Shown here piece after piece: positions 1 to 64,000 of a stretch of 64,000 nucleotides of DNA. The notes under the pieces are model-generated. The model was not told the DNA's origin. It worked only from the letters and a program-made list of their open reading frames with translations, and made no database searches. The position numbers and the translations under genes are program-made. Every line of letters begins with the position of its first letter. Within the stretch, counting starts at the first letter, position 1. Source of the stretch: a virus (Duplodnaviria > Caudoviricetes); IMG/VR virus record IMGVR_UViG_3300020360_000085, positions 186,520 through 250,519 of that record. One strand, 5' to 3'.

Positions 1-126
1 TACTTGTACTTCAGAATCTATGTTTGGTTGATATGCTATTAGTTTACCTGCAGAGTTTATATGGTAAATGCCATTGTTTACTTTGTACTTACCCCAATCA
101 GTAACTTCTTGTAATATCTCGATCAT
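1..126 (-). CDS. Hypothetical protein, runs off window edge (MIEILQEVTDWGKYKVNNGIYHINSAG...)
   Basis: Manually translated; ATG at 126 preceded by AAGGTAAGGAG Shine-Dalgarno and a sigma70 promoter; not in ORF track. Confidence 0.75.
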   Translation of the reverse strand, partial: MIEILQEVTDWGKYKVNNGIYHINSAGKLIAYQPNIDSEVQV

Positions 127-156
127 AATTTACTCCTTACCTTAAATTATTAGTAT

Positions 157-184
157 ATTATAGCAAATTATATGTAAAAGTCAA
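157..184 (-). promoter_or_regulatory. sigma70-type early promoter
   Basis: TTGACT-N16-TATAAT with extended TGn. Confidence 0.75.
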
Positions 185-194
185 GCAGATTTAC

Positions 195-201
195 ATAAAT
201 A
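195..201 (+). promoter_or_regulatory. T4-like late promoter motif ATAAATA
   Basis: Upstream of the 278 gene; same motif recurs upstream of many genes in the window. Confidence 0.55.
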
Positions 202-277
202 CGGGTACATCACAAACAACCCCACACAGAAATTTGCAAATTTTTATGTATATACACATAAACAACAGGAGAAATTT

Positions 278-865
278 ATGTATTATTCAGAATCAATGAT
301 TCAGATGGTCGAGGATTTACATGCTCAAGCATCTGCAATGGAGAAAGAAGTAAAGCATATGATGGAACTTGAAGGTCGTGCATTAGGTATAGAATTAGAC
401 AAAAGAAAAAGTCCAAGAGATTTATACAACGAACTTATGGAACATCAAAATGCTAAGGCAGAAGAAGAAGCAATGACATGGGCATACGTTCCATGCCAAA
501 TGGCAGAAGAAGATCCTAATTGCTATCCAGCAGATAGTTTTGATCATTCTTATGATGACCATGCTGAAGTTCATGTTGAAGAGGAAGCCTGTGTGCATGT
601 TGAAGAACATGTAATTGAAAGCGAAGCACCCGCAGATATGCCGGTAGAAGAACATGTAGAACCTGCACCAGCAGAAGAGCATGTTGAGCCTGCACCTGTA
701 GAGGAACATATGGAACCTGCTCCAGTAATGGAAGAGGCACCAATGGAAGAACATGTAGAACCTGCACCAGCAGAAGAGCATGTTGAAGCACCAGCAGTTC
801 AAGAACCAGGTTTTGACGCAAGTGCAGAAGCACCTGCAGAAGACCCTAATCAACCAGCAGGTTAA
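278..865 (+). CDS. Acidic His/Glu/Pro-rich repeat protein
   Basis: 195 aa ORF with AGGAG RBS; tandem EEH(V/M)EPAP repeats. Confidence 0.85.
   Translation: MYYSESMIQMVEDLHAQASAMEKEVKHMMELEGRALGIELDKRKSPRDLYNELMEHQNAKAEEEAMTWAYVPCQMAEEDPNCYPADSFDHSYDDHAEVHVEEEACVHVEEHVIESEAPADMPVEEHVEPAPAEEHVEPAPVEEHMEPAPVMEEAPMEEHVEPAPAEEHVEAPAVQEPGFDASAEAPAEDPNQPAG
644..793 (+). repeat. Tandem 27-nt coding repeats, including an exact 41-nt duplication (647-687 = 746-786)
   Basis: Directly visible in sequence. Confidence 0.9.
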
Positions 866-871
866 TTAGTC

Positions 872-899
872 AAAAAAAAGGCCCCGTTGAGGGGCCTTC
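872..899. terminator. Intrinsic terminator between convergent genes
   Basis: AGGCCCC-gttga-GGGGCCT hairpin with A7 tract on the left (U tract for the minus strand). Confidence 0.85.
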
Positions 900-960
900 T
901 AAAATCCGTGTGCCTTAGGTAGGGAGTAACATAGGTAGGCGCACAAGGATTTTAAACCGT

Positions 961-2073
961 TTACACGATATATTTAATGTATCTTTTACTGAAAGTCTCC
1001 CTTAACTCTTCAGTAAGATCAGTTCTTACATTAAACTTGATTTGATAGTCCTTCATAATTGTTCTAAATAAGAACACAACCATTTCAGGTTCAAAGTTAT
1101 CAAAACTAAACTTTACAATATTGTTAAGTCCTTTTTTCAACTCATCTGAGAAGACACCTTCATTTTTTTCGTATCTTTCATTAAGTTCGTATGCAAGTCC
1201 TACTACTAGTGAGTATTTTGCACTGATTTCTGAACTAACTTTATTATCCAGTTTTTTAACTTTACCATCTAATACCTGATCAGGATTTGGCAAATGTTGT
1301 GCAACTTTTCTGTGCTCAACAAATTTAATTGCCATACCTTCTCCTATAGCACCTGCAATCTCGGCTTTTTGCTCGAAATTACTAGCATTATCAAAACCAT
1401 CTGCTCCTAGCATTTCACTAACAAAAGTCCAACTTCTTGGTGTAGCGAATGCTTGGGAACTAGATTTTGCATCAAAGTCAAACAAGTCACCTTTACTGTA
1501 AGTTAAATAACCTACAACATCAGGGTGTACATTGTTATTAACCGCCCATTGTTGCCAATCATCAAAATTGACGTCCATGTTGATGTGACGGAATCTGTTT
1601 GCCAACGGTGCCGGCATACGGAAAGTTACACCTCTGTCTGTTTCACGGTTACCTGCCGCAACAATTCTTACATTATCAGGTAAAACATATTGTCCTACTT
1701 TTCTGTTAAGAACTAATTGGTAAGCCGCCGCCTGTACACTAGGAGGTGCTGAATTCAACTCATCTAGGAAAAGTACCACAGTATCAAATTCACTTGCGAA
1801 TTCCATACTAGGTAGGTCACTTGGAGGGGACCATTCCATTAAGTTGCTTTCTGGATTTCTAAAAGGATATCCTCTTAGATCAGTTGGTTCAAGAAGTGCT
1901 AAACGCATATCTATCATAGTAGCATTACCTATTTCGCCACTATTAACAATTTGTTCAACAAGTTCTGATTTGCCTATTCCTGGTGCTCCCCAGATAAAAA
2001 TAGGCCTGTTTACTTGAAGTGCCCTCTTAATGATAGGCTTTACTTCAGTTGCTCTAGTTTTTAAAGTTTCCAT
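961..2073 (-). CDS. MoxR-like AAA+ ATPase
   Basis: Walker A GAPGIGKS, Walker B FLDELN, AAGN sensor, ANRF arginine finger, TPRSW motif. Confidence 0.9.
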   Translation of the reverse strand: METLKTRATEVKPIIKRALQVNRPIFIWGAPGIGKSELVEQIVNSGEIGNATMIDMRLALLEPTDLRGYPFRNPESNLMEWSPPSDLPSMEFASEFDTVVLFLDELNSAPPSVQAAAYQLVLNRKVGQYVLPDNVRIVAAGNRETDRGVTFRMPAPLANRFRHINMDVNFDDWQQWAVNNNVHPDVVGYLTYSKGDLFDFDAKSSSQAFATPRSWTFVSEMLGADGFDNASNFEQKAEIAGAIGEGMAIKFVEHRKVAQHLPNPDQVLDGKVKKLDNKVSSEISAKYSLVVGLAYELNERYEKNEGVFSDELKKGLNNIVKFSFDNFEPEMVVFLFRTIMKDYQIKFNVRTDLTEELRETFSKRYIKYIV

Positions 2074-2103
2074 AATTTACTCCTTACCTTAAATTATGTA
2101 TAT

Positions 2104-2131
2104 ATAATAGCACAAAAATAGGTCTTGTCAA
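2104..2131 (-). promoter_or_regulatory. sigma70-type early promoter
   Basis: TTGACA-N16-TATTAT with TGC extension. Confidence 0.7.
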
Positions 2132-2160
2132 CACTTTTTTTAACTTTTTTTTAACTTTTT

Positions 2161-2649
2161 TTACTGAATTATGTCGATAAACGATTCTATATCGTTTCCA
2201 TTGAGTTTATACCAACTAGCATCTTCGCGATTATAGAGAACCATTTTTTTCTTAGTAAAATAGTAAGGCCATTGCATTTGATTATCTAAAACAAGATACA
2301 TTCTGGGTGTAGGCATAATAGAATGATTAAATTCAAAATATTCAAAATTACGTTTTAGTAATTCATTACCTAAATGTGTAAGTCTTAAACCTTGTGGCTG
2401 TCCTCTACGAACTCTGAAATTTTGAAATATTTTATATCCTAACTTGTCTTTGGGTATAGATTTAAATACTTCATAATGTTTACTATTTTTAGGAATGCCT
2501 GGTATTCTAGATGAATTTTTAAGTAACCCTTCTTTGATAATTTTGTAAATTGTGTCTATTACTTTATATTGTAACGGTTGTTCACTTTTTGAGTTCATCT
2601 TCAGAGACTTCAGGTCCTTTGACCATTTGACAAACTTTAAAATCATCAC
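2161..2649 (-). CDS. Hypothetical protein (true start probably near 2598)
   Basis: ORF track; 5' end overlaps next gene. Confidence 0.7.
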   Translation of the reverse strand: MMILKFVKWSKDLKSLKMNSKSEQPLQYKVIDTIYKIIKEGLLKNSSRIPGIPKNSKHYEVFKSIPKDKLGYKIFQNFRVRRGQPQGLRLTHLGNELLKRNFEYFEFNHSIMPTPRMYLVLDNQMQWPYYFTKKKMVLYNREDASWYKLNGNDIESFIDIIQ

Positions 2650-2884
2650 AAGAAAAAATATTATTAAGTCTTTCTGCTAGATTAAAGGCATGTCCAGGAT
2701 TACTAAATGAAACTTTTTTGTATTTAGGGCCAGGATAACTTACTAACGTATGTAATGTTCTTAAATTGATAGGTGTGTCTTTATAGAATACACTAAAAAT
2801 CGCACTTGCTTCTAGCACTTGTTCTGCCTTGTAAGTTTGTTTATTAATTGCTTCTAGCAATACTGTTGGTTTAGGTCTGCTCAT
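2582..2884 (-). CDS. Hypothetical phage protein (MSRPKP...YPGPKYKKVSFSNPGHA)
   Basis: ORF with GGAG RBS and upstream GATAAATA motif. Confidence 0.8.
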   Translation of the reverse strand: MSRPKPTVLLEAINKQTYKAEQVLEASAIFSVFYKDTPINLRTLHTLVSYPGPKYKKVSFSNPGHAFNLAERLNNIFSCDDFKVCQMVKGPEVSEDELKK

Positions 2885-2942
2885 GTGTATAGTCTCCTAT
2901 ACACTTATTTATCTTATTTTGCTATTAAAACTGTTGTTAATA

Positions 2943-3176
2943 TTAGGAATCTTGCTTATCAACAAGTGCTTTAAACTCAGTAAAACCGCCTATTGATTGC
3001 CCTTCAACAACGATTTGAGGGAATGTTCTTGCAGTAGGAAATTTTTCCATTAATTCTTCTCTTGTAAAATCATCAAAAAGCATTTTATAAGTGTAATCGA
3101 ATCCTTTTTGTTCACATACAGCCTTGGCCATATCACAATAAGGACATTCAGGTTTGCTCCAAATTTCTACTTTCAT
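2943..3176 (-). CDS. grx: Glutaredoxin
   Basis: CPYC active site, TFPQI and IGGF motifs. Confidence 0.95.
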   Translation of the reverse strand: MKVEIWSKPECPYCDMAKAVCEQKGFDYTYKMLFDDFTREELMEKFPTARTFPQIVVEGQSIGGFTEFKALVDKQDS

Positions 3177-3180
3177 ATTA

Positions 3181-3453
3181 TTATTTATTATATTCTATTA
3201 ATAGTTTTACATTAATTAGATCTGTTTCTAATTCAAATGAGAGATAACAATTTTGATTTTCATACCAGTCATCTCTGGTGTAATCCATATCTTTATGAGG
3301 TCTAAAATGCCAACCCCATTTACCTTCGCATAATTTATGAATTTGTGGTATTAAACTTCCAGATAATCCGTATGTTCTAGTTTTTATTTGATGTTTAAAT
3401 ATGTGATTATAACCGTAACCGTCTGGTAGTTCTAATTCGCTATACTTAGTCAC
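3181..3453 (-). CDS. Hypothetical protein
   Basis: ORF track, operon-packed. Confidence 0.7.
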   Translation of the reverse strand: MTKYSELELPDGYGYNHIFKHQIKTRTYGLSGSLIPQIHKLCEGKWGWHFRPHKDMDYTRDDWYENQNCYLSFELETDLINVKLLIEYNK

Positions 3454-3967
3454 TATGCTTTCTTAATTCTTTATTTAGAAGTTTAAGTGCTTGTCTGCAT
3501 TCTATTTCTGTTTTATAAGGTCCTTCAAAACCATAATTTACAATAGTAGAATACTTAGGCCCATTTGCATGTTTCCAGCCTTTATCAAACTTAATACAAT
3601 ACCAACCTGCCGCATAATAGATATCGCTATCTGATGTTTTACTAAACAAAGGTACGTCTGGATTGTAATCTGGGTGCCCAAAGTCTATAGGATACGGATT
3701 GGGATAATCAACTTTATGTCCTTTAATATAAAATTCTTCTATAAAGTTTTCAGGCATTTCAATTTGTTCACTAAACAAGTTTACATTACCAAAATAATCA
3801 GTAACTTCTTGTTCATCGTTTAGAGCAACAAATTCTTTACCTGTTATATAGAAATAATGTTCCTGTATATCCTTATTTAAAATACCTAATTTTCTTGGTC
3901 CTTGTCTTACAAGCCAAGCAACGTCAGATATTTGTTGTAATTGTGCTTTATTTTTTAATTTAGTCAT
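3446..3967 (-). CDS. Hypothetical protein
   Basis: ORF track, overlapping neighbours. Confidence 0.75.
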   Translation of the reverse strand: MTKLKNKAQLQQISDVAWLVRQGPRKLGILNKDIQEHYFYITGKEFVALNDEQEVTDYFGNVNLFSEQIEMPENFIEEFYIKGHKVDYPNPYPIDFGHPDYNPDVPLFSKTSDSDIYYAAGWYCIKFDKGWKHANGPKYSTIVNYGFEGPYKTEIECRQALKLLNKELRKHSD

Positions 3968-4196
3968 GTGTTATCTCCTGTGTTCCGTAGTCCCTATCAA
4001 CGGCAACTACTGTTCCGTCTATAGAATATAATTGTTTAATAGGCTGTCCTTTTATATCTTTAAAATGTTCAGGACAGACATCTGTTCTCATCGCTCTATA
4101 AACACGATTGCCACCATCTGGACTAGTATAAATCCAAAATGGATTCGAAGGCCAATCGTCTGTTAATCTTTTAACTGCTCTATCTAACTTGTCCAT
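3960..4196 (-). CDS. Hypothetical protein
   Basis: ORF track. Confidence 0.7.
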   Translation of the reverse strand: MDKLDRAVKRLTDDWPSNPFWIYTSPDGGNRVYRAMRTDVCPEHFKDIKGQPIKQLYSIDGTVVAVDRDYGTQEITHD

Positions 4197-5172: not shown

Positions 5173-5178
5173 AGTCTA

Positions 5179-5914: not shown

Positions 5915-5915
5915 A

Positions 5916-6524: not shown

Positions 6525-6533
6525 ATTTTCTCC

Positions 6534-7421
6534 TTATTTTCCGATTGCATTACCGTATATGTGTACATGTACTCTACTTGTATAGTAGTAACCACGTTTA
6601 ATGGCTTCATCGGCAATAGTGGCCTCAGTTTGTATGAGACCTTCAAATGTTCCACCTACTCCCATAATCCATACAGGAAAGTTGCAACCGGCGTCACGGA
6701 ACATTCTAGTGTTTTCTTCCACTTCCCTCCAACTTTCATCTGTGCCATTAACAACAAACTTTAGTTGACCGTGTGGACTAATTTCTGCGTATCTCCCTAT
6801 AACATCAGGCTTTATTGCTTTTTTAGATTGCTCTCCAGCAGTTGCCCATAGTTTAGGGGATAAACTCCAATACCATTCCCTAGTACCATCATATGTAAAC
6901 CATGCAATATAATCTTCTAGTTCTTGTGTAATAGGTCTAGTACCATTAGTTTCTATAGTCACATAGTTAGGCATATTTTCTCTTCTTTGGAACTCTTCTA
7001 ATACTCCAATCATTGCTGGTTGTGTATTTTTAAGCATAGGCTCTCCGCCTGTAAATACCATGTGAGTTTCTTGTCCTGTATCTGGATGTATAAATTTACC
7101 TTTAGGTAAATGAGCAGTAAGTTCATCACATGCTTCTTCTACAGTTTTATCTGTTATTAAATGGCTATATTTTTTTGCCCATGTATATGAACTATCACAG
7201 CCTTTATCAAAAACAGGTAAATCAAATACATTTGTAATATCTGTAATGTCTAGTTTTTCATAAGGTAATTCATATGTACTAGGATCTGTAGGATCTTTTT
7301 GTCCAAAACCATTACATTGTAAATTACATAGAAAAAATCTCATCCAAAGACTAGGAATACCGACATATTTGCCTTCTCCTTGTGCTGAATAAAATGTTTC
7401 GCTATATTTTACTGTTGTCAT
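6534..7421 (-). CDS. queE: 7-carboxy-7-deazaguanine synthase (radical SAM)
   Basis: SETFYSAQGEG, CNLQCNGF cluster motif, CD(S/T) motif, FTGGEP, IETNGT, HVHIYG C-terminus. Confidence 0.93.
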   Translation of the reverse strand: MTTVKYSETFYSAQGEGKYVGIPSLWMRFFLCNLQCNGFGQKDPTDPSTYELPYEKLDITDITNVFDLPVFDKGCDSSYTWAKKYSHLITDKTVEEACDELTAHLPKGKFIHPDTGQETHMVFTGGEPMLKNTQPAMIGVLEEFQRRENMPNYVTIETNGTRPITQELEDYIAWFTYDGTREWYWSLSPKLWATAGEQSKKAIKPDVIGRYAEISPHGQLKFVVNGTDESWREVEENTRMFRDAGCNFPVWIMGVGGTFEGLIQTEATIADEAIKRGYYYTSRVHVHIYGNAIGK

Positions 7422-7917: not shown

Positions 7918-8607
7918 TTATTTTCCACATGAGAATTCTTGTTGTAGTTTAATATTATCAAAAAATTCTTTCTTAGTTGAGGCGTCGTCCATAAATCTGC
8001 CTTCTAATACTGTAGTTTGTGTTAAACTGCTATGTGCCATAACACCTCTGTTCTCTACGCAACCATGTGTTGCTTGTACATAAACACCTACATCATTACT
8101 GCCTGTTGCTTTCATAATCTCTCTAGCAATATCAGTAGCAAGTTCTTCTTGTAAAGTACCTCTACTAGCACACCATTGTGCTATTCTAGTATATTTAGAC
8201 AAACCAATAAGTTTTGCCCCTGCAATGATGCCAATATACGCCGTTCCTTTAACTGTTTGATGATGATGCGAACACATACTAGTAAGTTCACTTCTTACTA
8301 CAAGCATACCTTTATATGCTTCTTCTGTATCATTAGGAAATGCAGTAGCCTTAGGCATTGGCTCATATCTACCAGACATAAGTTCATTGATGTACATTTT
8401 TGCAAGACGCCTTCCTGTGTCCATACTGTTAGGATCATTTTCAGTATCTATAACTAAGCCTTTAAGAACATCTTCAAATTTTACTGATAGTTCTTCAATT
8501 AGTGCTTCTTTGTCTCCAGGTTCAATAAATTCACTAATATTATCTCCTGCCCAAAACTTTGCACCTGCTTCTTGTAGTCTTGCTCTTATTTCATCACTTT
8601 TGGCCAT
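7918..8607 (-). CDS. folE: GTP cyclohydrolase I
   Basis: DTGRRLAKMY, SMCSHH, GLSKYTR, LQEEL, HGCVENRG Zn-ligand motifs. Confidence 0.95.
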   Translation of the reverse strand: MAKSDEIRARLQEAGAKFWAGDNISEFIEPGDKEALIEELSVKFEDVLKGLVIDTENDPNSMDTGRRLAKMYINELMSGRYEPMPKATAFPNDTEEAYKGMLVVRSELTSMCSHHHQTVKGTAYIGIIAGAKLIGLSKYTRIAQWCASRGTLQEELATDIAREIMKATGSNDVGVYVQATHGCVENRGVMAHSSLTQTTVLEGRFMDDASTKKEFFDNIKLQQEFSCGK

Positions 8608-8619
8608 TAAAAAGGTCTC

Positions 8620-9108
8620 CTATTTCCACCATTCTTCATATGGAAAGACTATCCATCTTTCCTGATCTGGCAAAACAACGTTTGCCGTAAATTCTACTTC
8701 ATTAAACTCACTGCTTTCTTTATCAAACAAAGTTGCAAATTTAATACCCTCATGTAAAGTAAACATATTGTTATTTTGTTTACTATCAAAATCTTTAATT
8801 ACAGACAATATACCATGTAATGTCTTACCAGAATCATTAATATCATCTACAACTAAAATGTTTTTACTAATGTATTTAGACAAAATGTGTTTAAGAGTCT
8901 CAGAATCTTCGATTTTTCCGTCTCTTGTTTGCCATCTAAATGCTTCAAAAGGCACCTCAAAGTAGTGGCTTAACATAACACCAAAAGGATATGCTCCTCT
9001 ACCAGGGCCTATAATTACATCAGGTTTATAACTTTCATGTGCCATTTCTCTAGCAATGATTCTGCAGTCAGAAACCAAGTCGTTGTATGAGTAATATAAT
9101 TTATTCAT
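8620..9108 (-). CDS. Type I purine-type phosphoribosyltransferase (Gpt/Hpt-like)
   Basis: PRPP loop VVDDINDSGKT; WIVFPYE C-terminus. Confidence 0.88.
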   Translation of the reverse strand: MNKLYYSYNDLVSDCRIIAREMAHESYKPDVIIGPGRGAYPFGVMLSHYFEVPFEAFRWQTRDGKIEDSETLKHILSKYISKNILVVDDINDSGKTLHGILSVIKDFDSKQNNNMFTLHEGIKFATLFDKESSEFNEVEFTANVVLPDQERWIVFPYEEWWK

Positions 9109-9143: not shown

Positions 9144-10100
9144 TTATTTCTTAGACTGATATGCAATTTCATCAGCAACAATTTCTTCTAATGTATTTTG
9201 TGGTTCCCAACCTAACATCTCAAATGCTTTTACTATATTTGCATCTGTTCTTTCAGCATCGCCATCTCTTTTAGGGCCAACTTCTACATTAATTTCTTTT
9301 TCTAATTGTTTTTCTACTTCTGCAATAACTTGCTTTATACTTGTTCCAGATCCGCCACCAATATTAAATATATTACTATTGCCACCATCCATTAAATAGT
9401 TTAAAGCAGATACATGAGCAGATGCTACATCAAAAACATGAGTGTAATCTCTAATACATGTACCATCAGGTGTTTCGTAATCGTCTCCATTTACTGTAAA
9501 AACTTCGTCATTTAAACCAGCATTTACTAGTATAGGTACTAAATGTTGTTTTGGATTAAGTGTATATCCTAATCCTTGATAACTACCTGCGGCATTAAAA
9601 TATCTTAAACTTGCAAAATTAAATTCATAAGCATCTGCATAGTCTTTTAAAACATTTTCTATAATTAACTTACTTCTACCATATGGTGTTTTAGGATTAG
9701 GAATGTCGCTTTCTGCATTTAGAATAGTTTCTGAGTCTCCGTAAACAGAACTTGAACTACTAAAAATAAAATGCTTAACTCCTGCATTTATAGAATGATT
9801 TAAAAGAGATATTGAGTTTGCCACATTATTAGCATAAGTAGAGGCAGGATCTTGTATGCTTAAAGGCACACTATGATCAGCCGCTAGATGAATAACTGCA
9901 TCTGGTTTTGTTAATTCTATTACGCCTTTTAATTGATGATTATCAATATCAAAAGGATATTGTGTGACACCTTCTTGCTGTCTTTTTACCCTGTCAATAT
10001 TAATAACATTATAGCCTGAATCAACAAGTAATTTACAGGTTACACTACCTATAAATCCACTACCACCAGTAACTAAAATAGTTTTTTCTTCATTATCCAT
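9144..10100 (-). CDS. galE: UDP-glucose 4-epimerase
   Basis: GGSGFIG, FSSSSSVYG, YGRSK, RYFNAAG, DGTCIRDY. Confidence 0.92.
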   Translation of the reverse strand: MDNEEKTILVTGGSGFIGSVTCKLLVDSGYNVINIDRVKRQQEGVTQYPFDIDNHQLKGVIELTKPDAVIHLAADHSVPLSIQDPASTYANNVANSISLLNHSINAGVKHFIFSSSSSVYGDSETILNAESDIPNPKTPYGRSKLIIENVLKDYADAYEFNFASLRYFNAAGSYQGLGYTLNPKQHLVPILVNAGLNDEVFTVNGDDYETPDGTCIRDYTHVFDVASAHVSALNYLMDGGNSNIFNIGGGSGTSIKQVIAEVEKQLEKEINVEVGPKRDGDAERTDANIVKAFEMLGWEPQNTLEEIVADEIAYQSKK

Positions 10101-11080
10101 TATTTCTCACTAAACCAGGAATCAAATACTTGTTCACTATCACAAACATTGATTCCGTTAAAATTAAAGTTAGTAATTGCATCTACAGTCATATCCACAC
10201 TTTCTTCAAATCTGTCAAACAGTTTTAAGTTTGGATACAACTCTGGATACACTAACCTATTAGGAAGTACAGGCGTACAACCTAAATACACGGCTTCAGC
10301 AACACCAAAGCCAAAGTTTTCTTGTAAAGCATAACTTACGATTGCTTTACTTTTGCCAAGTAAAGAATAGTATTCTTCCTTGGAAAGATTTTGTTCCTGT
10401 GTTTTTACAAACTGTACCGGAACATTTACCTTTTCAGATACTTGTTTTTCTAATTCATCAAACAACCAAGGTTGTTTTTCATCACAAAGTCTTCCATTAA
10501 AGATAACAATATTTTCTTTTTGTTGCCCTTTGTGTGAATCGAGCCCTGTGTAGTCTACAGGCAAACCTGTAACAACTAACTTGTCAGGGCTCACGATACG
10601 TTTTTTAATTATATCTTGTTTAATAAATTCACTTGCACAAAAAATTGTATCGCTTATATCAAATATAATATCCTCAAAATTCTTTGCCCAACGTTCCATA
10701 TCGCGAACAAAATCTGTATCTGTAAAACTTCCTGCATGAATTATACCTGTAATCTTTACATCAACTTTGTTAAAGTATTTCATATAGGCAATGTTTTCAA
10801 TACCAGGAAACCAAATGTCACTAAAGAAGAATCTGTCGCCATCTGCAATTTCTCCTCTTTCAAACATAGCAGATATTTCTGCCATTTGTAAAGATTTAAA
10901 TTTACTTGTAAAGGCGGCATTTAAAAATTGACCTTCAGGCAAAGGAGGTGTTTCATAAGTAGGCATAATTTTAACATACTCTAAATTTTTATCCTGTAGA
11001 TATTTTTCAATATCTCTGTCCATATGAACAGTATATCTACCATCAATATGTTCTAAAGGTATGTAAATTATTTTACTCAT
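10100..11080 (-). CDS. GT-B fold glycosyltransferase (GT4-like)
   Basis: FNGRLCDEKQ and QENFGFGVAEAVYLGCTPV donor-binding motif; shares a base with the galE start (ATAATG coupling). Confidence 0.82.
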   Translation of the reverse strand: MSKIIYIPLEHIDGRYTVHMDRDIEKYLQDKNLEYVKIMPTYETPPLPEGQFLNAAFTSKFKSLQMAEISAMFERGEIADGDRFFFSDIWFPGIENIAYMKYFNKVDVKITGIIHAGSFTDTDFVRDMERWAKNFEDIIFDISDTIFCASEFIKQDIIKKRIVSPDKLVVTGLPVDYTGLDSHKGQQKENIVIFNGRLCDEKQPWLFDELEKQVSEKVNVPVQFVKTQEQNLSKEEYYSLLGKSKAIVSYALQENFGFGVAEAVYLGCTPVLPNRLVYPELYPNLKLFDRFEESVDMTVDAITNFNFNGINVCDSEQVFDSWFSEK

Positions 11081-11219
11081 TTTCGTTTTCGTCTCCTAAA
11101 CCTTCTCCATAATCTACAACGTGAGTTATTTCATCGTCAAGACTTTGAGCATAATCATTATTTTTATCTGCCTCTGCTTTACTAATTTTTTTAGGCTTTT
11201 TCTTCTCTTCTTCAGTCAT
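11073..11219 (-). CDS. Small acidic hypothetical protein (48 aa)
   Basis: Manual translation MTEEEKKKPKK...VVDYGEGLGDENENE; coupled to both neighbours. Confidence 0.6.
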   Translation of the reverse strand: MTEEEKKKPKKISKAEADKNNDYAQSLDDEITHVVDYGEGLGDENENE

Positions 11220-11395
11220 TACATTGAGTTCTTTTTATCTTGGATTTCAGAACGTCTAACTTTTGTTAATTTGCTGATTTCCATTAATGCCTTTCTTGCT
11301 CTTGTGGCACTTGCTTTTACACCATTATTTTCGAACTTGTCTTGTTCCATAATGTATTCTTCCATCAGTGCTTTAAGTTTTAAATGTGTTTCCAT
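11219..11395 (-). CDS. Histone H1-like Hc1-family small protein (58 aa)
   Basis: Manual translation METHLKLKALMEEYIMEQDKFENNGVKASATRARKALMEISKLTKVRRSEIQDKKNSM; AAGGAG RBS; missed by ORF track. Confidence 0.7.
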   Translation of the reverse strand: METHLKLKALMEEYIMEQDKFENNGVKASATRARKALMEISKLTKVRRSEIQDKKNSM

Positions 11396-11406
11396 ATCTT
11401 TCTCCT

Positions 11407-11787
11407 TTATGGTACTTTTATGTATTCCATTTCACAGCCATTTTCATTATCCTCGGCTACTGAAATCTTTACCCAACGACCAGGATACCTATCTTGTATC
11501 TGTGTCGCTAAATCATCTGCGATCATTTCGCATGACTTGTTATTAAGTTGTATAACATCTTCATTATACAAACTTTCAAGCCATCTTTTAAATTGTATAA
11601 ACTCGATATCTCTGTCATCATGAAACACTTCTATCCACACTTTAAAGTGAAATATGTGTCTGTGTTTATACCCCAAAAAACTTACGTCATACTCGTCTCC
11701 TGTAGCAGTAGCAGGATTTGTATCTGCTCCAGGATAAAAGTGTATTCCCTCTTTACTGAATGTTACCCAAATACTTCTCACGACCAA
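11407..11787 (-). CDS. QueD-like T-fold protein with LxxxHRHxF signature (DpdL-like or QueD substitute)
   Basis: LGYKHRHIFHFKV, DRDIEF, SCEMIA and VAEDNENG motifs; located in deazaguanine cluster. Confidence 0.75.
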   Translation of the reverse strand: MVVRSIWVTFSKEGIHFYPGADTNPATATGDEYDVSFLGYKHRHIFHFKVWIEVFHDDRDIEFIQFKRWLESLYNEDVIQLNNKSCEMIADDLATQIQDRYPGRWVKISVAEDNENGCEMEYIKVP

Positions 11788-12438: not shown

Positions 12439-12630
12439 TCAATCATTAACTGAATCCGCTTCAGTTAATCTGTCTAACTCCTCAATATCATGTTCACCAA
12501 TAATTTCAACATCAAAGTTTCCATCTGGTGTTCTATCAACAGTAAATGACATATCATATCCTTTACTTTCTAAAGTATCTACTTTAGCACAAAATTCATT
12601 AAATTCGCTAGTGGTTAATGTTGCTTTCAT
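12439..12630 (-). CDS. Hypothetical protein
   Basis: ORF track, RBS. Confidence 0.65.
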   Translation of the reverse strand: MKATLTTSEFNEFCAKVDTLESKGYDMSFTVDRTPDGNFDVEIIGEHDIEELDRLTEADSVND

Positions 12631-12751
12631 TCTGACTCCTTGTCATTATTTTCTGCTTCTTCATTTGCAGTTTCATTATTTTGCTTCTGCTTTTTTAGTA
12701 TTTCAGCAATAGCACTTTCGTAACTTAATGGTTGTTCTTTTTTATCTTCTG

Positions 12752-12913
12752 TCATTTTTCTGGGTCTTCTAAAATATCTTGTTTCTCTTCTATTACCTTT
12801 CTCATAACGTCATGCTCTGTAGTATCACACCAATTGCAAGGCTGTCCATATGGTATTTGTGTTTCTCCAACATCTTTACAAACATGTGTCCACCATTTAC
12901 CATTCTGCTTCAT
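12752..12913 (-). CDS. Small Cys/His protein (WWTHVC...PCNWC)
   Basis: Manual translation, 53 aa; not in ORF track. Confidence 0.55.
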   Translation of the reverse strand: MKQNGKWWTHVCKDVGETQIPYGQPCNWCDTTEHDVMRKVIEEKQDILEDPEK

Positions 12914-13085
12914 CTATAAGTTCCTGTATCTCATCAGGTATTTCTACACCTGTTCTTTTAAGAAACACAAATAACTTAACAAAAAATCCTTCCCAATCTT
13001 CTATTTCAGTAAAGTCTCCATCAAACTCAACACTTGATATTATATTATGTTCGTCCGTTCCTGTCAACTTATATTTTACAGCCAT
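12897..13085 (-). CDS. Hypothetical protein
   Basis: ORF track. Confidence 0.65.
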   Translation of the reverse strand: MAVKYKLTGTDEHNIISSVEFDGDFTEIEDWEGFFVKLFVFLKRTGVEIPDEIQELIDEAEW

Positions 13086-13561
13086 TATATAATCTCCGCC
13101 CTATTAGTATATTTTATATAAGGCTCAAAATAACTTTTTCTAGTCATTTTTTCTATAGACTCTGAAAATATTCCATCATTAGAATATGTTAAATACTTGT
13201 CATTTATTTTATAACAAGTATTTTCGTTGTATTCTGCTAAATCTGGAATAATAAAATTTAAAATTGGAATAAAGTTATTACTGTTATTGCATTCCATGTT
13301 TATTATATCTGGGCAATAATTAGGAGTAAATTCTAAAGATATATATAAATCTTTTACTGCTAATAACTCTTTTAAAAGGTCTGCCCATAAATTAAATTGA
13401 TTTCTGTTACCTGGATTAAAATTAGTAAAATGGATATGATGTACTTTATTGTTTAATGCTCGTGCTAATATTTCTTCTTTATGTTGCCAGCCATGTACAA
13501 ACAAAGTTTCCTCACCTTTCATAATTGTGTTATCAACTTCGCTACCTAAACTATAAATCAT
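13085..13561 (-). CDS. Hypothetical protein coupled to dpdA
   Basis: ATGA overlap with dpdA stop; GSEVD...TLFVHG...HHIHF motif. Confidence 0.75.
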   Translation of the reverse strand: MIYSLGSEVDNTIMKGEETLFVHGWQHKEEILARALNNKVHHIHFTNFNPGNRNQFNLWADLLKELLAVKDLYISLEFTPNYCPDIINMECNNSNNFIPILNFIIPDLAEYNENTCYKINDKYLTYSNDGIFSESIEKMTRKSYFEPYIKYTNRAEII

Positions 13562-15090
13562 GCCTCAAAATCTCCTGACATAATTTCATGTGTCATTGCA
13601 TTTACATCATCGTCCTGATCAAATTCTTCTTCCTCAAAAAATGCACCAAATCCTGCATTTGTTTTAGCACCAAAACTCATCTCATCTAGTAATTTAACAT
13701 TTTCTTCTATTAGTTCATATGGATTAGGACAAGCAGGATCTAATACTTCCTGGCAAAAACTATCAAAGTATAATGCATTTGCAGGAACATAAGGACTAAA
13801 TTCGTTACTCTTGCCTGATTTTTTATCATTAATATAATCAGTATAATGTACATTAGTTCTATATTTTTCTACATCAGCAAGTCTGTTTGCTTCTTGTACC
13901 GCAGTAATATGATTGTACACACTATGAGCCATATAATATAGATATGTTTGTGTGTCCCAACTTGTAGATGTTGCACTCTTGGCCTTTCCGTTTTTATCTA
14001 GATCGCCTTCTGACATGGCACATATATCTCCTACAGTAAGTCTTTCCATTATAGGAGAATGTGCAAATGGCATAGGCAACTTGGAGCCTTTTAATTGTTG
14101 ATTGTCTATCGCTCTATCCATTAAGTAACTAAACTTTTTAGGATGGAAACTGTTATGTGTATATGTGCTACCATATGCACTATTAACAAACGGACTGGCG
14201 GCATCCATGCTCAAACATATATCTGGACTGTCATGTTTCCTTAACATTCTTTGTATGCTAGTTAAGTAACAGGCCCAATTAAGTTTACCTGTACCCAAGA
14301 AATGTATCCAGCCTTTGCCTTCCAACAATCCATCTTCCCTGAGTTTAAGTATCCTTCTTAGGGCCATTCTCATATTACGTTTTTGTAAATCAGCAAATGC
14401 GTATCCTTCTAATGCAAGTTCGCTATTGCCATATGCTTCTTTACAAAATTTAGGGTCACTAAAATGTTTAACTTTTTCATACCACTCATCACAAGTAGGC
14501 TCATCAACTCCACTCATTACATTTAAGAACTTACACTTACCTGGTGTTCTGTTCTTCATATAGTAGTCCAAGTTGTACAAACTAATTTGCATAGTTTGTT
14601 CAAAAGTTTCTAATCCTGTTTTTTTATTGAAAGGAGGGAAGGCCGCAAAAGGAGGAACATCTAATGTCATTGCCCAATCGCATTGTTCCTCTTCCCATTT
14701 AAGAATTTTATTTACAAGTTTTTCCCTTTCAGGATCATCTGGATTTATAGCATTTGCCCAATCCATTTTAATAACACCAGTTGCAATCTGGAAACCGCCT
14801 GAGTCTCCAAGTATTAGTGTTTTACTTCTATCTCTATCAGTAATCATAGGCTCGCCATCAAGTTTATCTAAATCTAACTGAGCATGACCGGCAGAGTATA
14901 ATCCCCAAGGATAGTAATAGTAAGTGTCTATATCTTTTAGGAAATCCATGCCCTCATGACCTAATTCAAGTCCTTCAGGTACTCTAGGTGCTCCTTCTTT
15001 TTGTAATTTTTCTAACTGCTTTACATAAAAACTACTAATAGCAGGTAAAAATATTGCATAGTCTCTTTGTGTTTTTCCTAAATTTTTCAT
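13558..15090 (-). CDS. dpdA: DNA 7-deazaguanine transglycosylase (TGT-like)
   Basis: TGT motifs LGDSGGFQ, AMTLDVP, HFLGTG and SMDAAS; neighbours queE and folE. Confidence 0.85.
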   Translation of the reverse strand: MKNLGKTQRDYAIFLPAISSFYVKQLEKLQKEGAPRVPEGLELGHEGMDFLKDIDTYYYYPWGLYSAGHAQLDLDKLDGEPMITDRDRSKTLILGDSGGFQIATGVIKMDWANAINPDDPEREKLVNKILKWEEEQCDWAMTLDVPPFAAFPPFNKKTGLETFEQTMQISLYNLDYYMKNRTPGKCKFLNVMSGVDEPTCDEWYEKVKHFSDPKFCKEAYGNSELALEGYAFADLQKRNMRMALRRILKLREDGLLEGKGWIHFLGTGKLNWACYLTSIQRMLRKHDSPDICLSMDAASPFVNSAYGSTYTHNSFHPKKFSYLMDRAIDNQQLKGSKLPMPFAHSPIMERLTVGDICAMSEGDLDKNGKAKSATSTSWDTQTYLYYMAHSVYNHITAVQEANRLADVEKYRTNVHYTDYINDKKSGKSNEFSPYVPANALYFDSFCQEVLDPACPNPYELIEENVKLLDEMSFGAKTNAGFGAFFEEEEFDQDDDVNAMTHEIMSGDFEA

Positions 15091-56607: not shown

Positions 56608-56635
56608 ATTATATAGTCTTTTTAGAATTTGTCAA
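56608..56635 (-). promoter_or_regulatory. sigma70-type promoter for clpP
   Basis: TTGACA-N16-TATAAT. Confidence 0.75.
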
Positions 56636-56641
56636 TAGTGG

Positions 56642-58711: not shown

Positions 58712-58715
58712 GTTA

Positions 58716-59111: not shown

Positions 59112-59155
59112 GCTGTTATTTATGAAGTCAGATAATTTGAATATTGTAGTACTGG

Positions 59156-59554: not shown

Positions 59555-59587
59555 TTTATGCTCCTATAAAACTATATAATGTATTTA

Positions 59588-60937
59588 TCATTCTGAACCA
59601 ATAGGGTCTATACACATTACAGTATTATTATATTTGGGAAACAGTTTAGTAAGTTTTTTTGAATATTCTGTTTCTTTATAATAGTTTTCTTCAACAGACA
59701 GACTAATAAATTTTTCTAGTTCATCTTCTATTACTTGTTTAAGATCTGTATAATGAACTGTAAAGTTTGTTTTTAATTCATCTATAAAATATTTTCTATT
59801 ATTCCAACTGAATCCTTGGAATCTGTCATTTTGTAAATTGAATACTTGTCTGTTATGCTCTAATTTATCTATAATTACAGATTCAGACATTTTTTTATTA
59901 AGTTTTGTTTTATCTAATTTAGACAAAACTTCTAGTTCATATGTAATAGCATTTATACGAGTGCCTAAATGTTCAATATTATCATATTCTTCAGACCATA
60001 AATCATCAAAAGTTTCATAACCGTGCTGTTTGAGTTCTGCTAACTGTCCTGGAGCACCTAATAATATAAACGGTCTCCCGTAATATATGGGCCTCCAGAT
60101 TTTTTCTGTGTAAAAAGTTGTCTGCCACCATTCAGGTGCTTCTGAAAAACTGTACCTATACCCAATTGGTTGTGTGCCTATAATTGTTTCTGTTACAACA
60201 TCTAAATATGCCCAGTTATGAGAATATAAAAATTCAGGATTAACATCTTTTTTATGACTATTAACATCATAATGATTGCTATCAGAACCAGAAGGCAACA
60301 TAATAGGAAATTCTAAACCGTCTAATTCAGGATCGTTAGTTTTAGGATCTTCTAAATAAGTAACAACACCATGCTTTAGTAAGTTGTTTTTAGATAACTT
60401 TTTAAGTAAATCCAATCTGTGTTGTCTATCAGCACCATTATAAAAAGTATATACATATGGTTTTATAAATTTACCTTCTCTGTCTATTTGCTCATAATAA
60501 TCTACATGTGCTGAATTAACAACATCGTCCCATGTATTTAAAAACTTAGCCTGTGCTAATTTAGGTACATCTATTTTAGCACCTACATTTTCATACCATT
60601 GTTCGTAACTTTCTTCTAACTTAGAATTGCCATGCATAAATGTAACGTTTTCTATTGGGAAGTCTGCTAGTTCACAAGCATTATAAATCCAATCAAGAAC
60701 ACTTACTCTAATACCATAAACATTTTTGAATATAAAAAATCCTGCTTCTGAACTAAAGTCTATAAAAAGATATTTTGCATTTGTTTTAGCAACATAGTGT
60801 TTAATTACAATGTCCAGATGTTTTTGAAACATTGGGTGCATACTAACTACTAGATGTAACACAGGTTCTTTCATATTACTATTTAAGGAAAAGCCAGGTA
60901 TTTCTACCTGGCTTCCGGTTGATATGGTCGTAACCAT
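59588..60937 (-). CDS. Putative glycosyltransferase-like protein (paralog of 20763 gene)
   Basis: YNGADRQHR, DVVTET, TEKIWRPI...GYETFD. Confidence 0.5.
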   Translation of the reverse strand: MVTTISTGSQVEIPGFSLNSNMKEPVLHLVVSMHPMFQKHLDIVIKHYVAKTNAKYLFIDFSSEAGFFIFKNVYGIRVSVLDWIYNACELADFPIENVTFMHGNSKLEESYEQWYENVGAKIDVPKLAQAKFLNTWDDVVNSAHVDYYEQIDREGKFIKPYVYTFYNGADRQHRLDLLKKLSKNNLLKHGVVTYLEDPKTNDPELDGLEFPIMLPSGSDSNHYDVNSHKKDVNPEFLYSHNWAYLDVVTETIIGTQPIGYRYSFSEAPEWWQTTFYTEKIWRPIYYGRPFILLGAPGQLAELKQHGYETFDDLWSEEYDNIEHLGTRINAITYELEVLSKLDKTKLNKKMSESVIIDKLEHNRQVFNLQNDRFQGFSWNNRKYFIDELKTNFTVHYTDLKQVIEDELEKFISLSVEENYYKETEYSKKLTKLFPKYNNTVMCIDPIGSE

Positions 60938-60949
60938 ATAAAAATTTTT

Positions 60950-61117
60950 TTACATTATCGGTTCCATTGCTACATACATAAACCAAACTATAAAAGCAAG
61001 TGTACCAAACGTTACCATGTCTTCACATGCCTGCCCAGACGGACATACTCGTTCTTTAAATTGCTTTAGTGTTTGGAAAATATCGGCAACAGCCGCCTTC
61101 ATTGTTGCGGTTGTCAT
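60950..61117 (-). CDS. Small protein with C-terminal TM helix
   Basis: AGGAG RBS before MTTATM (track start 61159 is upstream). Confidence 0.65.
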   Translation of the reverse strand: MTTATMKAAVADIFQTLKQFKERVCPSGQACEDMVTFGTLAFIVWFMYVAMEPIM

Positions 61118-61164
61118 TTTAGTTCTCCTAGACCTAAATAATTTAGCACCCAGTTCCACAGATT

Positions 61165-61322
61165 CTCACGAACTCTGCTCGGTCAGTAAAAAGTTCCTTA
61201 ACTTTTAGAGCATCGTAATGTTGCTGTTCCTCACATTGGGTCATTTAGCGGATACACACCGCGACAACCGACTGCTCTCCAAACTGATCGTTGTAGACGA
61301 AAGGATGGTTCACGTCCGCTCT
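61165..61322 (-). ncRNA. Candidate structured leader RNA / sRNA
   Basis: GC-rich, multiple stems, directly after GATAAATA at 61323-61330. Confidence 0.45.
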
Positions 61323-61353
61323 TATTTATCCTTATTAACTCAGTAGTTTATGA

Positions 61354-61629
61354 TTAGTGGGGGTTTCGCACAATTTGGTAATTGTAATCAGGATGTTCCC
61401 AGGAAAATCTAAATTGTGCAAACATATCTTCAGGCATAGATACTAACAATGATTTACCTTTTGTGTCTACATGTGTATCTATAATTAAGTCCTGGTAAAC
61501 ATAATTCCATGTGGCTGTCCAAATAACTAAAGCACTTTGTATTTGGTTTGCAACAGTACTGGCTCTAGATAATTCATCTAGTGTATGCAATTCAGTGCCA
61601 TGTGGTAATTCAAATCTAACTGTCTTCAC
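61354..61629 (-). CDS. Hypothetical protein
   Basis: ORF track. Confidence 0.7.
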   Translation of the reverse strand: MKTVRFELPHGTELHTLDELSRASTVANQIQSALVIWTATWNYVYQDLIIDTHVDTKGKSLLVSMPEDMFAQFRFSWEHPDYNYQIVRNPH

Positions 61630-61837
61630 TACCTAACTCCATAATAAAGTCTAATACATCAGATTCCTCTTCTGTTGTTCTTTCCATTAGAACACTTAGA
61701 CCTTTTTGTTCACAATCTTTTATAAACTTTCTGGCATGCCAGCCTCTCATTTCTCCAACCCATACAGGTTCAAGTGTATTAGGATTTATATATGCCATGT
61801 TAAATAATGTAAAGTCTGATTTGTTGTCTATGCTCAT
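61616..61837 (-). CDS. Hypothetical protein
   Basis: ORF track. Confidence 0.7.
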   Translation of the reverse strand: MSIDNKSDFTLFNMAYINPNTLEPVWVGEMRGWHARKFIKDCEQKGLSVLMERTTEEESDVLDFIMELGSEDS

Positions 61838-62088
61838 AGTAAACTCATTTTTAATAATGCTAAATCTGTACCGCTCTCAAATCTAAACTCTATACTTTCC
61901 CTGGCTTTGTTATAGTCAAACAAATAATTACCTGGTTGTATGCCTATCTGATAGCACCACTCCCTAATGGCTTTTTTGGTATGTAGATTAAAATGACGTT
62001 TTTGTCTGTAGTTCATAGTAATACTATGAGTTTGCCACTTGTCCCAATACTCCTGTTCCTGCTCGTTAAAAGTCTTAAACCTAGCCAT
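61834..62088 (-). CDS. Hypothetical protein
   Basis: ORF track; sigma70 promoter 62096-62123. Confidence 0.7.
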   Translation of the reverse strand: MARFKTFNEQEQEYWDKWQTHSITMNYRQKRHFNLHTKKAIREWCYQIGIQPGNYLFDYNKARESIEFRFESGTDLALLKMSLL

Positions 62089-62144
62089 TCATTACATTAT
62101 ACAATAAACTGGTCATTTGTCAATAGTTGGTGATAAATAGTAGT

Positions 62145-62828
62145 ATGGAAAACATGCAGGACATATTAAAGAAGTATTACAACTCTGGCGGTAAAGACTT
62201 GTTTAAAGAACAAGACGACGGATCTAAAGACATAGGAGTAAATTCTCACAATCCTATAAATGGACCTACATACAGTTTTGATGAAATTAAAAAGAAAGAT
62301 CCTGCATTAGAGGAAAATTTAAAAACAAGATGGTCAAACGAAGTACCAGATGGTAGTAGTTTATATATAAAAGAAGAAATACGAAAAACTAATCAGTTTA
62401 AATATCCACTAGATACAATAAAATTTAGAAATTATGCCAGTGGTTCTGATTTTGATGATTCAAAAAGTTTTTTATTAGAATTATTGCTTTACAAATATTT
62501 TCCAGACCTTAATGAATTTGGAACCGATACTTATGGATATTTGGGAAGTAAAGAACAACCTGTAGAAATGCAAAGGAAAAGTCTTTTATCCAATATGGTT
62601 CCTGCTATGATACCTTGCATACAGATAGTTGCTGTTAGTAGTGCAGTAGAAGTTTTTGACGCATTATTAATTTTAAAAACTTTGAAAGACTATATGGAAA
62701 AAGATCATACAGAAAGAAGATTACCTCGACAAGAAGGCAAGGTTCATTTTTACAGAGGCAACTCACAAGGCAAAGGTGCTAGGGCAGTACTTAATGCGGC
62801 CAAAAAAATTGGCATGCCCATAAAGTAA
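62145..62828 (+). CDS. Hypothetical protein
   Basis: ORF; start placed 5 nt after ATAAATA. Confidence 0.7.
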   Translation: MENMQDILKKYYNSGGKDLFKEQDDGSKDIGVNSHNPINGPTYSFDEIKKKDPALEENLKTRWSNEVPDGSSLYIKEEIRKTNQFKYPLDTIKFRNYASGSDFDDSKSFLLELLLYKYFPDLNEFGTDTYGYLGSKEQPVEMQRKSLLSNMVPAMIPCIQIVAVSSAVEVFDALLILKTLKDYMEKDHTERRLPRQEGKVHFYRGNSQGKGARAVLNAAKKIGMPIK

Positions 62829-62829
62829 A

Positions 62830-63342
62830 ATGAAACTAAATGAAATATTTGGTTTAAAAGATCGTTTTGCGAAGTTTAAAGCAGATCGTGAGACTGTACC
62901 TGTACCACCTAAAACAAATTTATATCATGTCACATTGGCACATAACTGGCCTAGCATACAGCGACAAGGTTTAATACCTGGTGGTGTATGTAAATCATAT
63001 AATGCCTGTGATAACAACTATGTGTATTTAACAGACAATGCCGGTATAGCCACAGCCGTAATAGGTAGCAGTGACCTATCTCAACAAGAAATAGACAAGA
63101 GTAATGGTAAAGGTGTAATAATGTTAATAAACAGTACTAAACTTAAACCTGAATTACTCAGCAGTGATCCTGGAGTTCCAGCAAATTGGACAAATCCCAA
63201 ATACACCTACAGATATCAGGGAACAATACCTGCTGATGCTATAGTTATGCATGATGAATTTGAATTAGACTATGGGTATTATTTAAATAAACAATTTAGA
63301 CATTTACGTCCTGGAAAGCCTGGCGAAAAATATCGTCCTTAA
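62830..63342 (+). CDS. Tpt1/KptA- or ADP-ribosyltransferase-fold protein
   Basis: LYHVT..NWPSIQRQGLIP and VYLTD motifs; Y.YQGTIP..AI. Confidence 0.55.
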   Translation: MKLNEIFGLKDRFAKFKADRETVPVPPKTNLYHVTLAHNWPSIQRQGLIPGGVCKSYNACDNNYVYLTDNAGIATAVIGSSDLSQQEIDKSNGKGVIMLINSTKLKPELLSSDPGVPANWTNPKYTYRYQGTIPADAIVMHDEFELDYGYYLNKQFRHLRPGKPGEKYRP

Positions 63343-63593
63343 TTGATCTGCCTGCCTGTAACCTGTGTGTACACATTTAATATAGACTGATTAAATCGTG
63401 GCTTCTCCCACTGACGTTCATGTACATAGTATAACACCATTTTAGTAAGAACTTCCAGACTGGCTATACTGGCACCTATACTGGCACTACCAGTTAATAA
63501 CCAAGACAGAAGAAAAGTATCAGCACTTGCTAGAACTCTCCAAGTACAGGTCTTGCAAAAACTGATTACATGTGCTCGTTTTTTGTAACTCAT
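63339..63593 (-). CDS. DUF2061-family membrane protein
   Basis: KTCTWRVLAS.DT and KMVLYYVHER.W. Confidence 0.85.
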   Translation of the reverse strand: MSYKKRAHVISFCKTCTWRVLASADTFLLSWLLTGSASIGASIASLEVLTKMVLYYVHERQWEKPRFNQSILNVYTQVTGRQIN

Positions 63594-63683
63594 ATGAATA
63601 TTTACAGATGATGTGGCATTAAATTAACAGTTAGTATAAGTTATATGTTGCTTTAATGCCACACCTGTTTTAGATATAGTTGA

Positions 63684-63845
63684 TTATGCTACCCAACGTG
63701 TGCCACGATATATGCCTTGCGACATTTTCGGGGTTTCTGTCTTATGTTTAGCCTCAACTCTGACACCTCTATAAATATAACCAAGCGATTTTTTAGCCGC
63801 TTTGGGTTTATTTTGTTTAGTGAGTTTGATTCCTCTATAAGTCAT
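63684..63845 (-). CDS. YRG-motif peptide, DUF4278/IF17-like (53 aa)
   Basis: Manual translation MTYRGIKLTKQNKPKAAKKSLGYIYRGVRVEAKHKTETPKMSQGIYRGTRWVA; GGAGG RBS; not in ORF track. Confidence 0.8.
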   Translation of the reverse strand: MTYRGIKLTKQNKPKAAKKSLGYIYRGVRVEAKHKTETPKMSQGIYRGTRWVA

Positions 63846-63854
63846 GTCATCCTC

Positions 63855-63998
63855 CTCTAATTTTTGTTAAAAGAAAATGCGTTCCTTCGACTTTCGGTCT
63901 CGTTCGGCTGTTGCCTACTTGCTTACCTTTGAGTTAGATCTCAAAGAGGTTTTCAGGTCTACTTCCGTTCACTGCTACATTTAGAGTGAATGAACGAT
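63855..63998 (-). ncRNA. Glutamine-II (Downstream-peptide)-type riboswitch, expanded variant
   Basis: P1 CGUUC/GAACG, ACGGAAGUAG...CGAAGGAACGC core, P2 UUCACU/AGUGAA, possible pseudoknot CUCUAA/UUAGAG at the RBS, downstream YRG peptide. Confidence 0.75.
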
Positions 63999-64000
63999 TG

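Follow-up and report, generated by a model that had tools for sequence, protein, structure and literature searches.

Restriction-site avoidance by virulent double-stranded DNA phages and DpdA-based protection of phage DNA are both already established. Escherichia phage CAjan carries 2'-deoxy-7-cyano-7-deazaguanine (dPreQ0) at GA and GGC, and its GGT sites are cut (PMC7544227), while Pseudomonas phage iggy is modified at GA (PMC10484667). In the DpdA3/DpdL phages, Cellulophaga phage phiST and Campylobacter phage CP220, FolE and QueE occur without QueC, and DpdA3 replaces all guanines (PMC10516641). Digests of DNA from the Pseudomonas jumbo phage PA5oct have been read as modified G in GA and/or GG (PMC12191111); no chemical identification of the base in PA5oct or the related Paride appears in the literature that we searched. 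Here we analyze a stretch of 64,000 nucleotides (the window) that forms the end of a 250,519-nucleotide linear virus record (the contig) in IMG/VR, IMGVR_UViG_3300020360_000085, with an estimated completeness of 66%. The window lacks AGCT and GCWGC and encodes a DpdA-like protein. The contig is present in marine metagenomes, and its family B DNA polymerase shares 43-46% identity with its counterparts in jumbo phages, among them Phosso, Atu_ph07, and Escherichia phage 121Q.

Our preferred reading, which we hold at a probability of roughly 85%, is that host restriction has purged those sites that a DpdA-dependent modification at G-A and G-G steps does not shield. DpdA would swap guanine for a 7-deazaguanine derivative at these steps, with the first G as the modified position, poor modification in GGG runs, and a target covering 39-47% of all G. 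The modified G would block restriction at overlapping sites, and Type II restriction systems dispersed through the host population would select away every unshielded copy. By analogy, the contig works like the motif-limited protection of CAjan and iggy combined with classical avoidance.

Context-dependent loss of restriction sites

A sequence-only reading of the window had proposed that AGCT and GCWGC are avoided throughout, and counting bears this out. Both words lie far below, and not near, the expectation of a maximal-order Markov model, with 0 AGCT against 113.7 expected and 0 GCAGC plus GCTGC against 45.5. For the whole contig we used a synonymous-codon shuffle in which all protein sequences and the codon usage are preserved and codon-pair preferences are ignored, on simple gene calls of our own (256 genes, 96% of the contig). 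The contig has 2 AGCT, both outside the window, against 568 expected from the shuffle, and 0 GCWGC against 223. The remark that Ala-Ala pairs start with GCG or GCC holds for all 240 pairs in the contig (GCG first in 123, GCC in 117), even though GCA and GCT make up 4050 of 4851 Ala codons and GCG and GCC only 17%. GATC, GGCC, CCWGG, and GTAC are indeed common, with 151, 64, 71, and 184 copies in the window and contig-wide ratios to shuffle expectation of 0.95, 1.14, 1.17, and 1.00, respectively. The depletion thus goes beyond base, codon, and protein constraints, as in Type II restriction-site avoidance.

The purge is wider than that reading saw, taking in about 15 more sites, and it is conditional on context. 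We scanned 4,416 palindromic patterns in the contig blindly under a G-purine mask, in which a copy counts as protected if the site contains or adjoins a G whose next base is A or G, and as unprotected otherwise. The scan returned almost only known enzyme specificities or sub-words of them, namely those of AluI/CviJI, Fnu4HI/TseI, MwoI, TspRI, BsaAI, HhaI, Cac8I, HincII/HpaI, and AccI/BstZ17I, as well as MfeI, NdeI, PstI, AflII, ApaLI, and AlwNI. About 15 Type II-like sites are near zero only where no G-purine step overlaps or adjoins them. Observed/expected copies in the contig, unprotected and then protected, are as follows:

AGCT: 0/312; 2/265
GCNGC: 0/156; 260/137
GCN7GC: 0/152; 292/170
CASTG: 0/56; 135/179
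YACGTR: 0/55; 38/45
GCGC: 0/54; 36/81
GCNNGC: 0/46; 80/154
GTYRAC: 0/37; 81/100
GTMKAC: 0/34; 89/127
CAATTG: 0/26; 41/73
CATATG: 1/26; 90/94
CTGCAG: 0/16; 53/58
CTTAAG: 0/13; 16/24
GTGCAC: 0/12; 8/19
CAGN3CTG: 0/10; 80/76
AGCG (asymmetric): 2/162; 225/222
GCAATG (asymmetric, BsrDI site): 0/29; 77/83

Within the window, the observed copies (unprotected/protected) follow the same division:

1-64000, purged: RGCY 0/277, GCNGC 0/64, GCN7GC 0/63, CATATG 0/39, CASTG 0/33
1-64000, purged: GTMKAC 0/29, GTYRAC 0/27, GCNNGC 0/21, CAGN3CTG 0/18, CTGCAG 0/15
1-64000, purged: GCGC 0/10, CAATTG 0/9, YACGTR 1/9, CGCG 0/6, CTTAAG 0/3, GTGCAC 0/1
1-64000, unpurged: GTAC 95/89, TGCA 354/0, ACGT 78/37, CATG 57/141

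The conditional pattern extends over the whole 250-kb contig, in which hundreds of unprotected copies of GTAC, TGCA, ACGT, and CATG likewise remain. Dividing the GC-containing sites by overlap with GG or CC gives 0/176 without and 292/147 with overlap for GCN7GC, 0/58 and 80/139 for GCNNGC, and 0/56 and 36/77 for GCGC; GC-to-GC spacings of 3-6 and 8-15 show no purge. Each surviving GCGC copy has a preceding G or a following C, and the few surviving copies of AGCT, AGCGT, and AGCCC all have a GA step at their edge. Counting all copies in the codon shuffle, GTATAC stands at 0/60 and GTTAAC at 0/56. The loss of AGCT and GCWGC looks complete because these words carry no G-purine step, unlike the other members of the wider specificities to which they belong: every RGCY word but AGCT contains GG or CC, as does the half of GCNGC that is not GCWGC. 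GATC, GGCC, and CCWGG stay common because every copy would be shielded. Bulk counts had given the misleading impression that GCNGC and GCN7GC are undepleted; GCN7GC stands at 0.92 of expectation overall yet at 0/152 where unshielded.

Several words at the margin of this pattern deserve mention. AGCG has no verifiable match to a known enzyme specificity; it is purged where unshielded (5/52 and 0/51 in relatives) while AGCA is enriched, which suggests an RGCB-like specificity. We take M.CviJI to read RGCB, an assumption that we could not confirm. TACGTA survives only with GG immediately 3' of it. Partly depleted in the contig, and not fully explained by the rule, are GGATG (to about half), GGATCC (6/22), GAATTC (22/55), and CCGG (62/134).

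The protecting rule in the contig, its relatives, and control phages

To compare protecting rules, we scored each by the number of nested REBASE palindromes that it explains in the contig. The G-purine rule with one 5' flanking base explains 21-22, and rules that include neither GG nor GA reach no more than 4. A GG-only mask fits the GC-containing sites, misses sites that end in G, and reaches 11, so that the addition of GA is needed; the CAjan rule, GA plus GGC, also reaches 11. Placing the modification on the second G of GG gives 14-15 sites, fails on the sites ending in G, and is less favored. Sites that end in G are retained when the next base is a purine and hardly ever when it is C or T: RCAATTG stands at 0/24 before C and 0/29 before T, and RCATATG at 2/23 before C and 0/30 before T. 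Survival before a purine points to the first G of the step as the protecting position. GGA, GGC, and GGT all protect, whereas runs of GGG protect poorly, with 2 of about 26 for GGGC as the sole rescue and 1/36 for GGGATG. A G just outside the site rescues GCGC, GCNNGC, GCN7GC, and GTGCAC.

The rule also describes related genomes in which the lost sites differ. In two relatives with an 88% identical DpdA (G001 and G002), the sites of this set are down to 0-2 unprotected copies, except GTMKAC, which they keep; AGCT stands at 0/121 unprotected and 35/44 protected. In two more distant relatives (G003 and G004; 64-65% DpdA identity), other sites are purged by the same rule, for example CGCG at 0/27 unprotected and 92/100 protected, while AGCT is kept in both and GCWGC in G003, where unprotected AGCT stands at 255/312 and GCWGC at 168/140. 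Paride, unlike the contig, purges few sites (CTGCAG, CAGCTG, GTGCAC, and ACGCGT) and keeps AGCT and GCWGC, at 411/488 and 221/223 unprotected; its CTGCAG counts are 0/13 unprotected and 66/68 protected, and those for CAGCTG are 0/11 and 13/30. Phosso yields 15 nested sites for the G-purine rule and is predicted from these counts to be modified at G-A and G-G steps. The avoided set thus varies by lineage across the contig, these four relatives, Paride, and Phosso, as expected of restriction-site avoidance.

As controls, 16 rules were run on cultured phages; GA plus GGC was in the list because it was known beforehand. For CAjan, the test picks GA plus GGC with 7 sites (CCWGG 0/14 unprotected, 74/64 protected), and for iggy it picks GA with 5 sites, in both cases the measured motif. 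CAjan, iggy, Phosso, and Paride all show conditional avoidance. In 121Q, which has no match to the contig DpdA, 30 nested palindromic patterns, including GA- or GG-containing ones such as GGATCC, GAGCTC, and CTCGAG, are lost unconditionally, GCGC stands at 0/123, the G-purine rule scores 1, and the best rule (6) only splits degenerate patterns. Such classical avoidance likewise depletes Type II palindromes below what codon usage and composition predict, with compensation by synonymous changes, but in the contig the copies of each site fall into two classes, unshielded ones that are purged and shielded ones that are retained.

Published digests allow a further comparison. The five enzymes that PA5oct resists have no unprotected site in Paride, whereas HindIII, BsgI, FspI, and NdeI have 29-46. 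This agreement arises partly by construction, as the sites of four of the resistant enzymes contain GA or GG, and resistance to ApaLI is weak support, as Paride has two such sites, both flanked by G. In the source, the DraI entry lists a site other than TTTAAA, and the text names resistant enzymes only (PMC12191111).

The candidate writer and its neighbors

A cluster of genes on the minus strand of the window encodes the putative modification pathway:

6534-7421, minus: QueE-like radical S-adenosylmethionine enzyme (7-carboxy-7-deazaguanine synthase; phrog_2076, E 7.4e-51)
7918-8607, minus: FolE, GTP cyclohydrolase I, the first step of 7-deazaguanine synthesis (PF01227, E 1.5e-37)
8620-9108, minus: purine phosphoribosyltransferase-like protein
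9144-10100, minus: GalE, UDP-glucose 4-epimerase, in the same gene run and a candidate link to the modification (TIGR01179, above cut-off)
10100-11080, minus: glycosyltransferase-like protein that travels with dpdA and dpdL, role putative (neighborhood)
11407-11778, minus: DpdL-like T-fold protein with LxxxHRHxF (motif; tblastn matches to ACP17, 49.6%, and phiST, 32.8%)
13558-15090, minus: DpdA-like DNA guanine transglycosylase, 510 residues (invariant DSGG motif; TGT-fold model)

Pfam searches of the contig for TGT, QueC, and PTPS gave no match, and the DpdA-like protein was recognized by motif and fold. Its D96, S97, G98, and G99 are invariant in 58 homologues, and its structural model (pLDDT, the predicted local distance difference test score, 85.6) has as top Foldseek matches in the PDB only tRNA-guanine transglycosylases (TGTs), the best at E 5.4e-7. 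The protein therefore joins the TGT fold to the DSGG motif of enzymes of DpdA modification, and we infer that it is the writer at G-A and G-G steps. Its closest cultured relative is the PA5oct/Paride protein, at 47.5% identity; matches at E<1e-5 come from only 13 phage records (PA5oct-like phages, Phosso, and Vibrio phage 2.275.O), and databases hold more than 4,600 relatives. In PA5oct and Paride (Wroclawvirus), orthologous dpdA, glycosyltransferase, dpdL, and queE genes adjoin the DNA polymerase gene, and Paride obeys the same rule as the contig.

The likeness to CAjan and iggy lies in a TGT-fold DpdA accompanied by FolE and QueE, a short G-purine target, restriction protection, and conditional avoidance. 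The CAjan and iggy enzymes, however, have no detectable match to the contig DpdA, which thus falls outside DpdA1-type similarity, and the contig differs further in its lack of a QueC match and in the reach of the protection, which for several enzymes includes one base beyond the site. GGT and GGA are protective in the contig, whereas GGT sites are cut in CAjan (PMC7544227). With phiST and CP220, the contig has in common FolE and QueE without QueC and the LxxxHRHxF motif of DpdL, as defined in PMC10516641. Complete replacement of the DpdA3 kind is contradicted, if indirectly, since sites with G are lost wherever no G-purine step overlaps them; the modification would therefore be partial and motif-limited.

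In Paride, a glycosyltransferase-like gene sits between dpdA and dpdL, and in Phosso and ACP17 it adjoins dpdL (positions 10100-11080, minus strand, in the window; 10623-11684 in locus L034; 500-1501 in locus L209), and from this neighborhood the protein may act on the modified base. We tentatively extend this to a proposal that we rate well short of even odds: the PA5oct-like branch of DpdA would install at G-A and G-G steps a bulky base not described before, probably 7-deazaguanine carrying a sugar, and the purged words would amount to a catalog of about 15 restriction specificities, including an RGCB-like one, that are active in streamlined marine Gammaproteobacteria. A bulky sugar-bearing base would explain both the kept glycosyltransferase and the protection from one base outside the site.

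Hosts and competing explanations

The alternative oxidase encoded by the phage (locus L065, 2434-3027, minus strand) shares 84-87% identity with Porticoccus proteins and no more than 77% with those of SAR86, and the host is therefore probably a marine gammaproteobacterium (SAR92/Porticoccus or SAR86). At one SAR86 locus, a C5 methylase that shares 80% identity with one from a second genome has a Bsp6I-family nuclease as its neighbor, and SAR86-family genomes also carry a HaeIII-like methylase and MutH-domain and NgoFVII-like nucleases. We take these families to read GCNGC (Bsp6I), GGCC (HaeIII), GATC (MutH), and GCSGC (NgoFVII). GCWGC is gone from the contig while GGCC, GATC, and GCSGC remain, in line with what the G-purine rule predicts for these specificities. 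Its hosts probably lack enzymes for GTAC, TGCA, ACGT, and CATG, because these words stay common unshielded. Type II-like methylase-nuclease cassettes in SAR86-family genomes are diverse and patchy, and many methylase neighbors have no Pfam match. A MunI-family search in SAR86 gave no match anywhere, its controls likewise giving none, and pooled host loci were discarded as a negative control, being dominated by 80 copies of one gene.

Several observations weigh against host restriction of unshielded sites. The modification and the host enzymes are read here indirectly, from site statistics and genes, and the host is placed only at the level of a probable marine gammaproteobacterium. The rule was found post hoc on the contig, with which G001 and G002 share ancestry. 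Rescue by a flanking G is enzyme-specific: it is absent for GCWGC, GTATAC, and GTTAAC and hardly works for AGCT in the contig (2/265), though it does in the relatives (35/44 and 35/38). No QueC or canonical QueD was found in the 66%-complete contig. On the host side, the five genomes with the best oxidase matches have no C5 or beta-class methylase match, C5 methylases occur in only 30 of 139 SAR86-family and 36 of 121 Porticoccaceae genomes, and the Bsp6I-family nuclease occurs in 1 of 266 SAR86-order genomes. Because each restriction system is so rare, fifteen absolute purges must reflect selection summed over many strains of a varied host population, and this step is the weakest link in our argument.

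That candidate hosts are poor in methylases would be easier to understand if the phage or its co-infecting phages encoded the nucleases, whether for self restriction-modification, the degradation of host DNA, or competition between phages, and N4-methylcytosine (m4C) at RGCY is frequent in marine myovirus-like genomes (PMC8919816). We consider this unlikely, as about 15 unrelated, lineage-variable specificities better fit a host pan-genome, and the 66%-complete contig has no match to the methylase families PF00145, PF01555, or PF02086, with no search aimed at nucleases. It is also conceivable, if quite improbable, that host methyltransferases select: methylation of unshielded sites would harm the phage, methyl-directed nucleases being one possible route, and the modified G would block the methylase. 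The data identify sites and not enzymes, many purged sites are classic targets of 5-methylcytosine (m5C) or m4C methylation, and DNA containing 2'-deoxyarchaeosine (dG+) is a poorer substrate for some methylases (PMC5567051). Such selection, however, calls for one more component that has not been seen; nuclease genes often adjoin the SAR86 methylase genes that we examined, and restriction protection by 7-deazaguanines has been demonstrated (PMC7544227).

The sequence-only reading had offered two causes, host restriction at sites without deazaguanine protection or a sequence constraint of the modification itself, and they fare differently. The first is strongly supported, as protection tracks G before A or G. 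The second, in which modified words would, for example, be toxic or unreplicable, gains some appeal from the GC-rich missing words and the guanine-modifying pathway of the phage, but the copies that are missing are those without the inferred target, and the phages with orthologous DpdA that keep AGCT and GCWGC near expectation purge other words. GTATAC and GCAATG, moreover, are purged in the lineage of the contig and not in the relatives whose DpdA is 88% identical. Which sites are lost depends on the lineage, and the protecting rule on the modifying enzyme; this excludes such a constraint for practical purposes. Codon-pair bias, mutational bias, or an assembly or library artifact is a negligible prospect even with a shuffle blind to codon pairs and simple gene calls, because the zero falls at GC-to-GC spacing 7 and not at the same-frame spacings 4, 10, and 13, both strands and intergenic DNA obey the rule, the pattern recurs in many independent assemblies, and the blind scan yields almost only known enzyme specificities or their sub-words.

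On host restriction of unshielded sites, modification and site avoidance divide the work within one genome, a split that ordinary avoidance statistics hide. We found no paper on avoidance conditional on a modification motif or on inferring a motif from avoidance, in a search that left out most subscription papers. The usual route to a hypermodification motif is purified virion DNA with long-read kinetics or digests; here the motif is readable from assembled sequence, and the test was correct on both phages with measured motifs. If this is general, the modification motifs of metagenomic phages and the restriction repertoire of their uncultured hosts would be predictable. PA5oct and Paride can be cultured, so their chemistry is directly testable.

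A few minor features of composition and gene content were also seen. The contig has no early-gene block free of template-strand GA or GG, the longest runs being 200-250 nucleotides. Genome-wide, coding strands show a mild TC deficit (rho 0.68, against 0.95 for GA; 0.89 in Paride), which we do not regard as supporting evidence. Between dpdA and dpdL, three small genes (window positions ~12439-13085, minus strand) have 16-25 template-strand GA/GG per kb, against a median of 46. The start of the contig (locus L065, 1-60) looks by eye like the inside of a reverse-strand serine tRNA gene.

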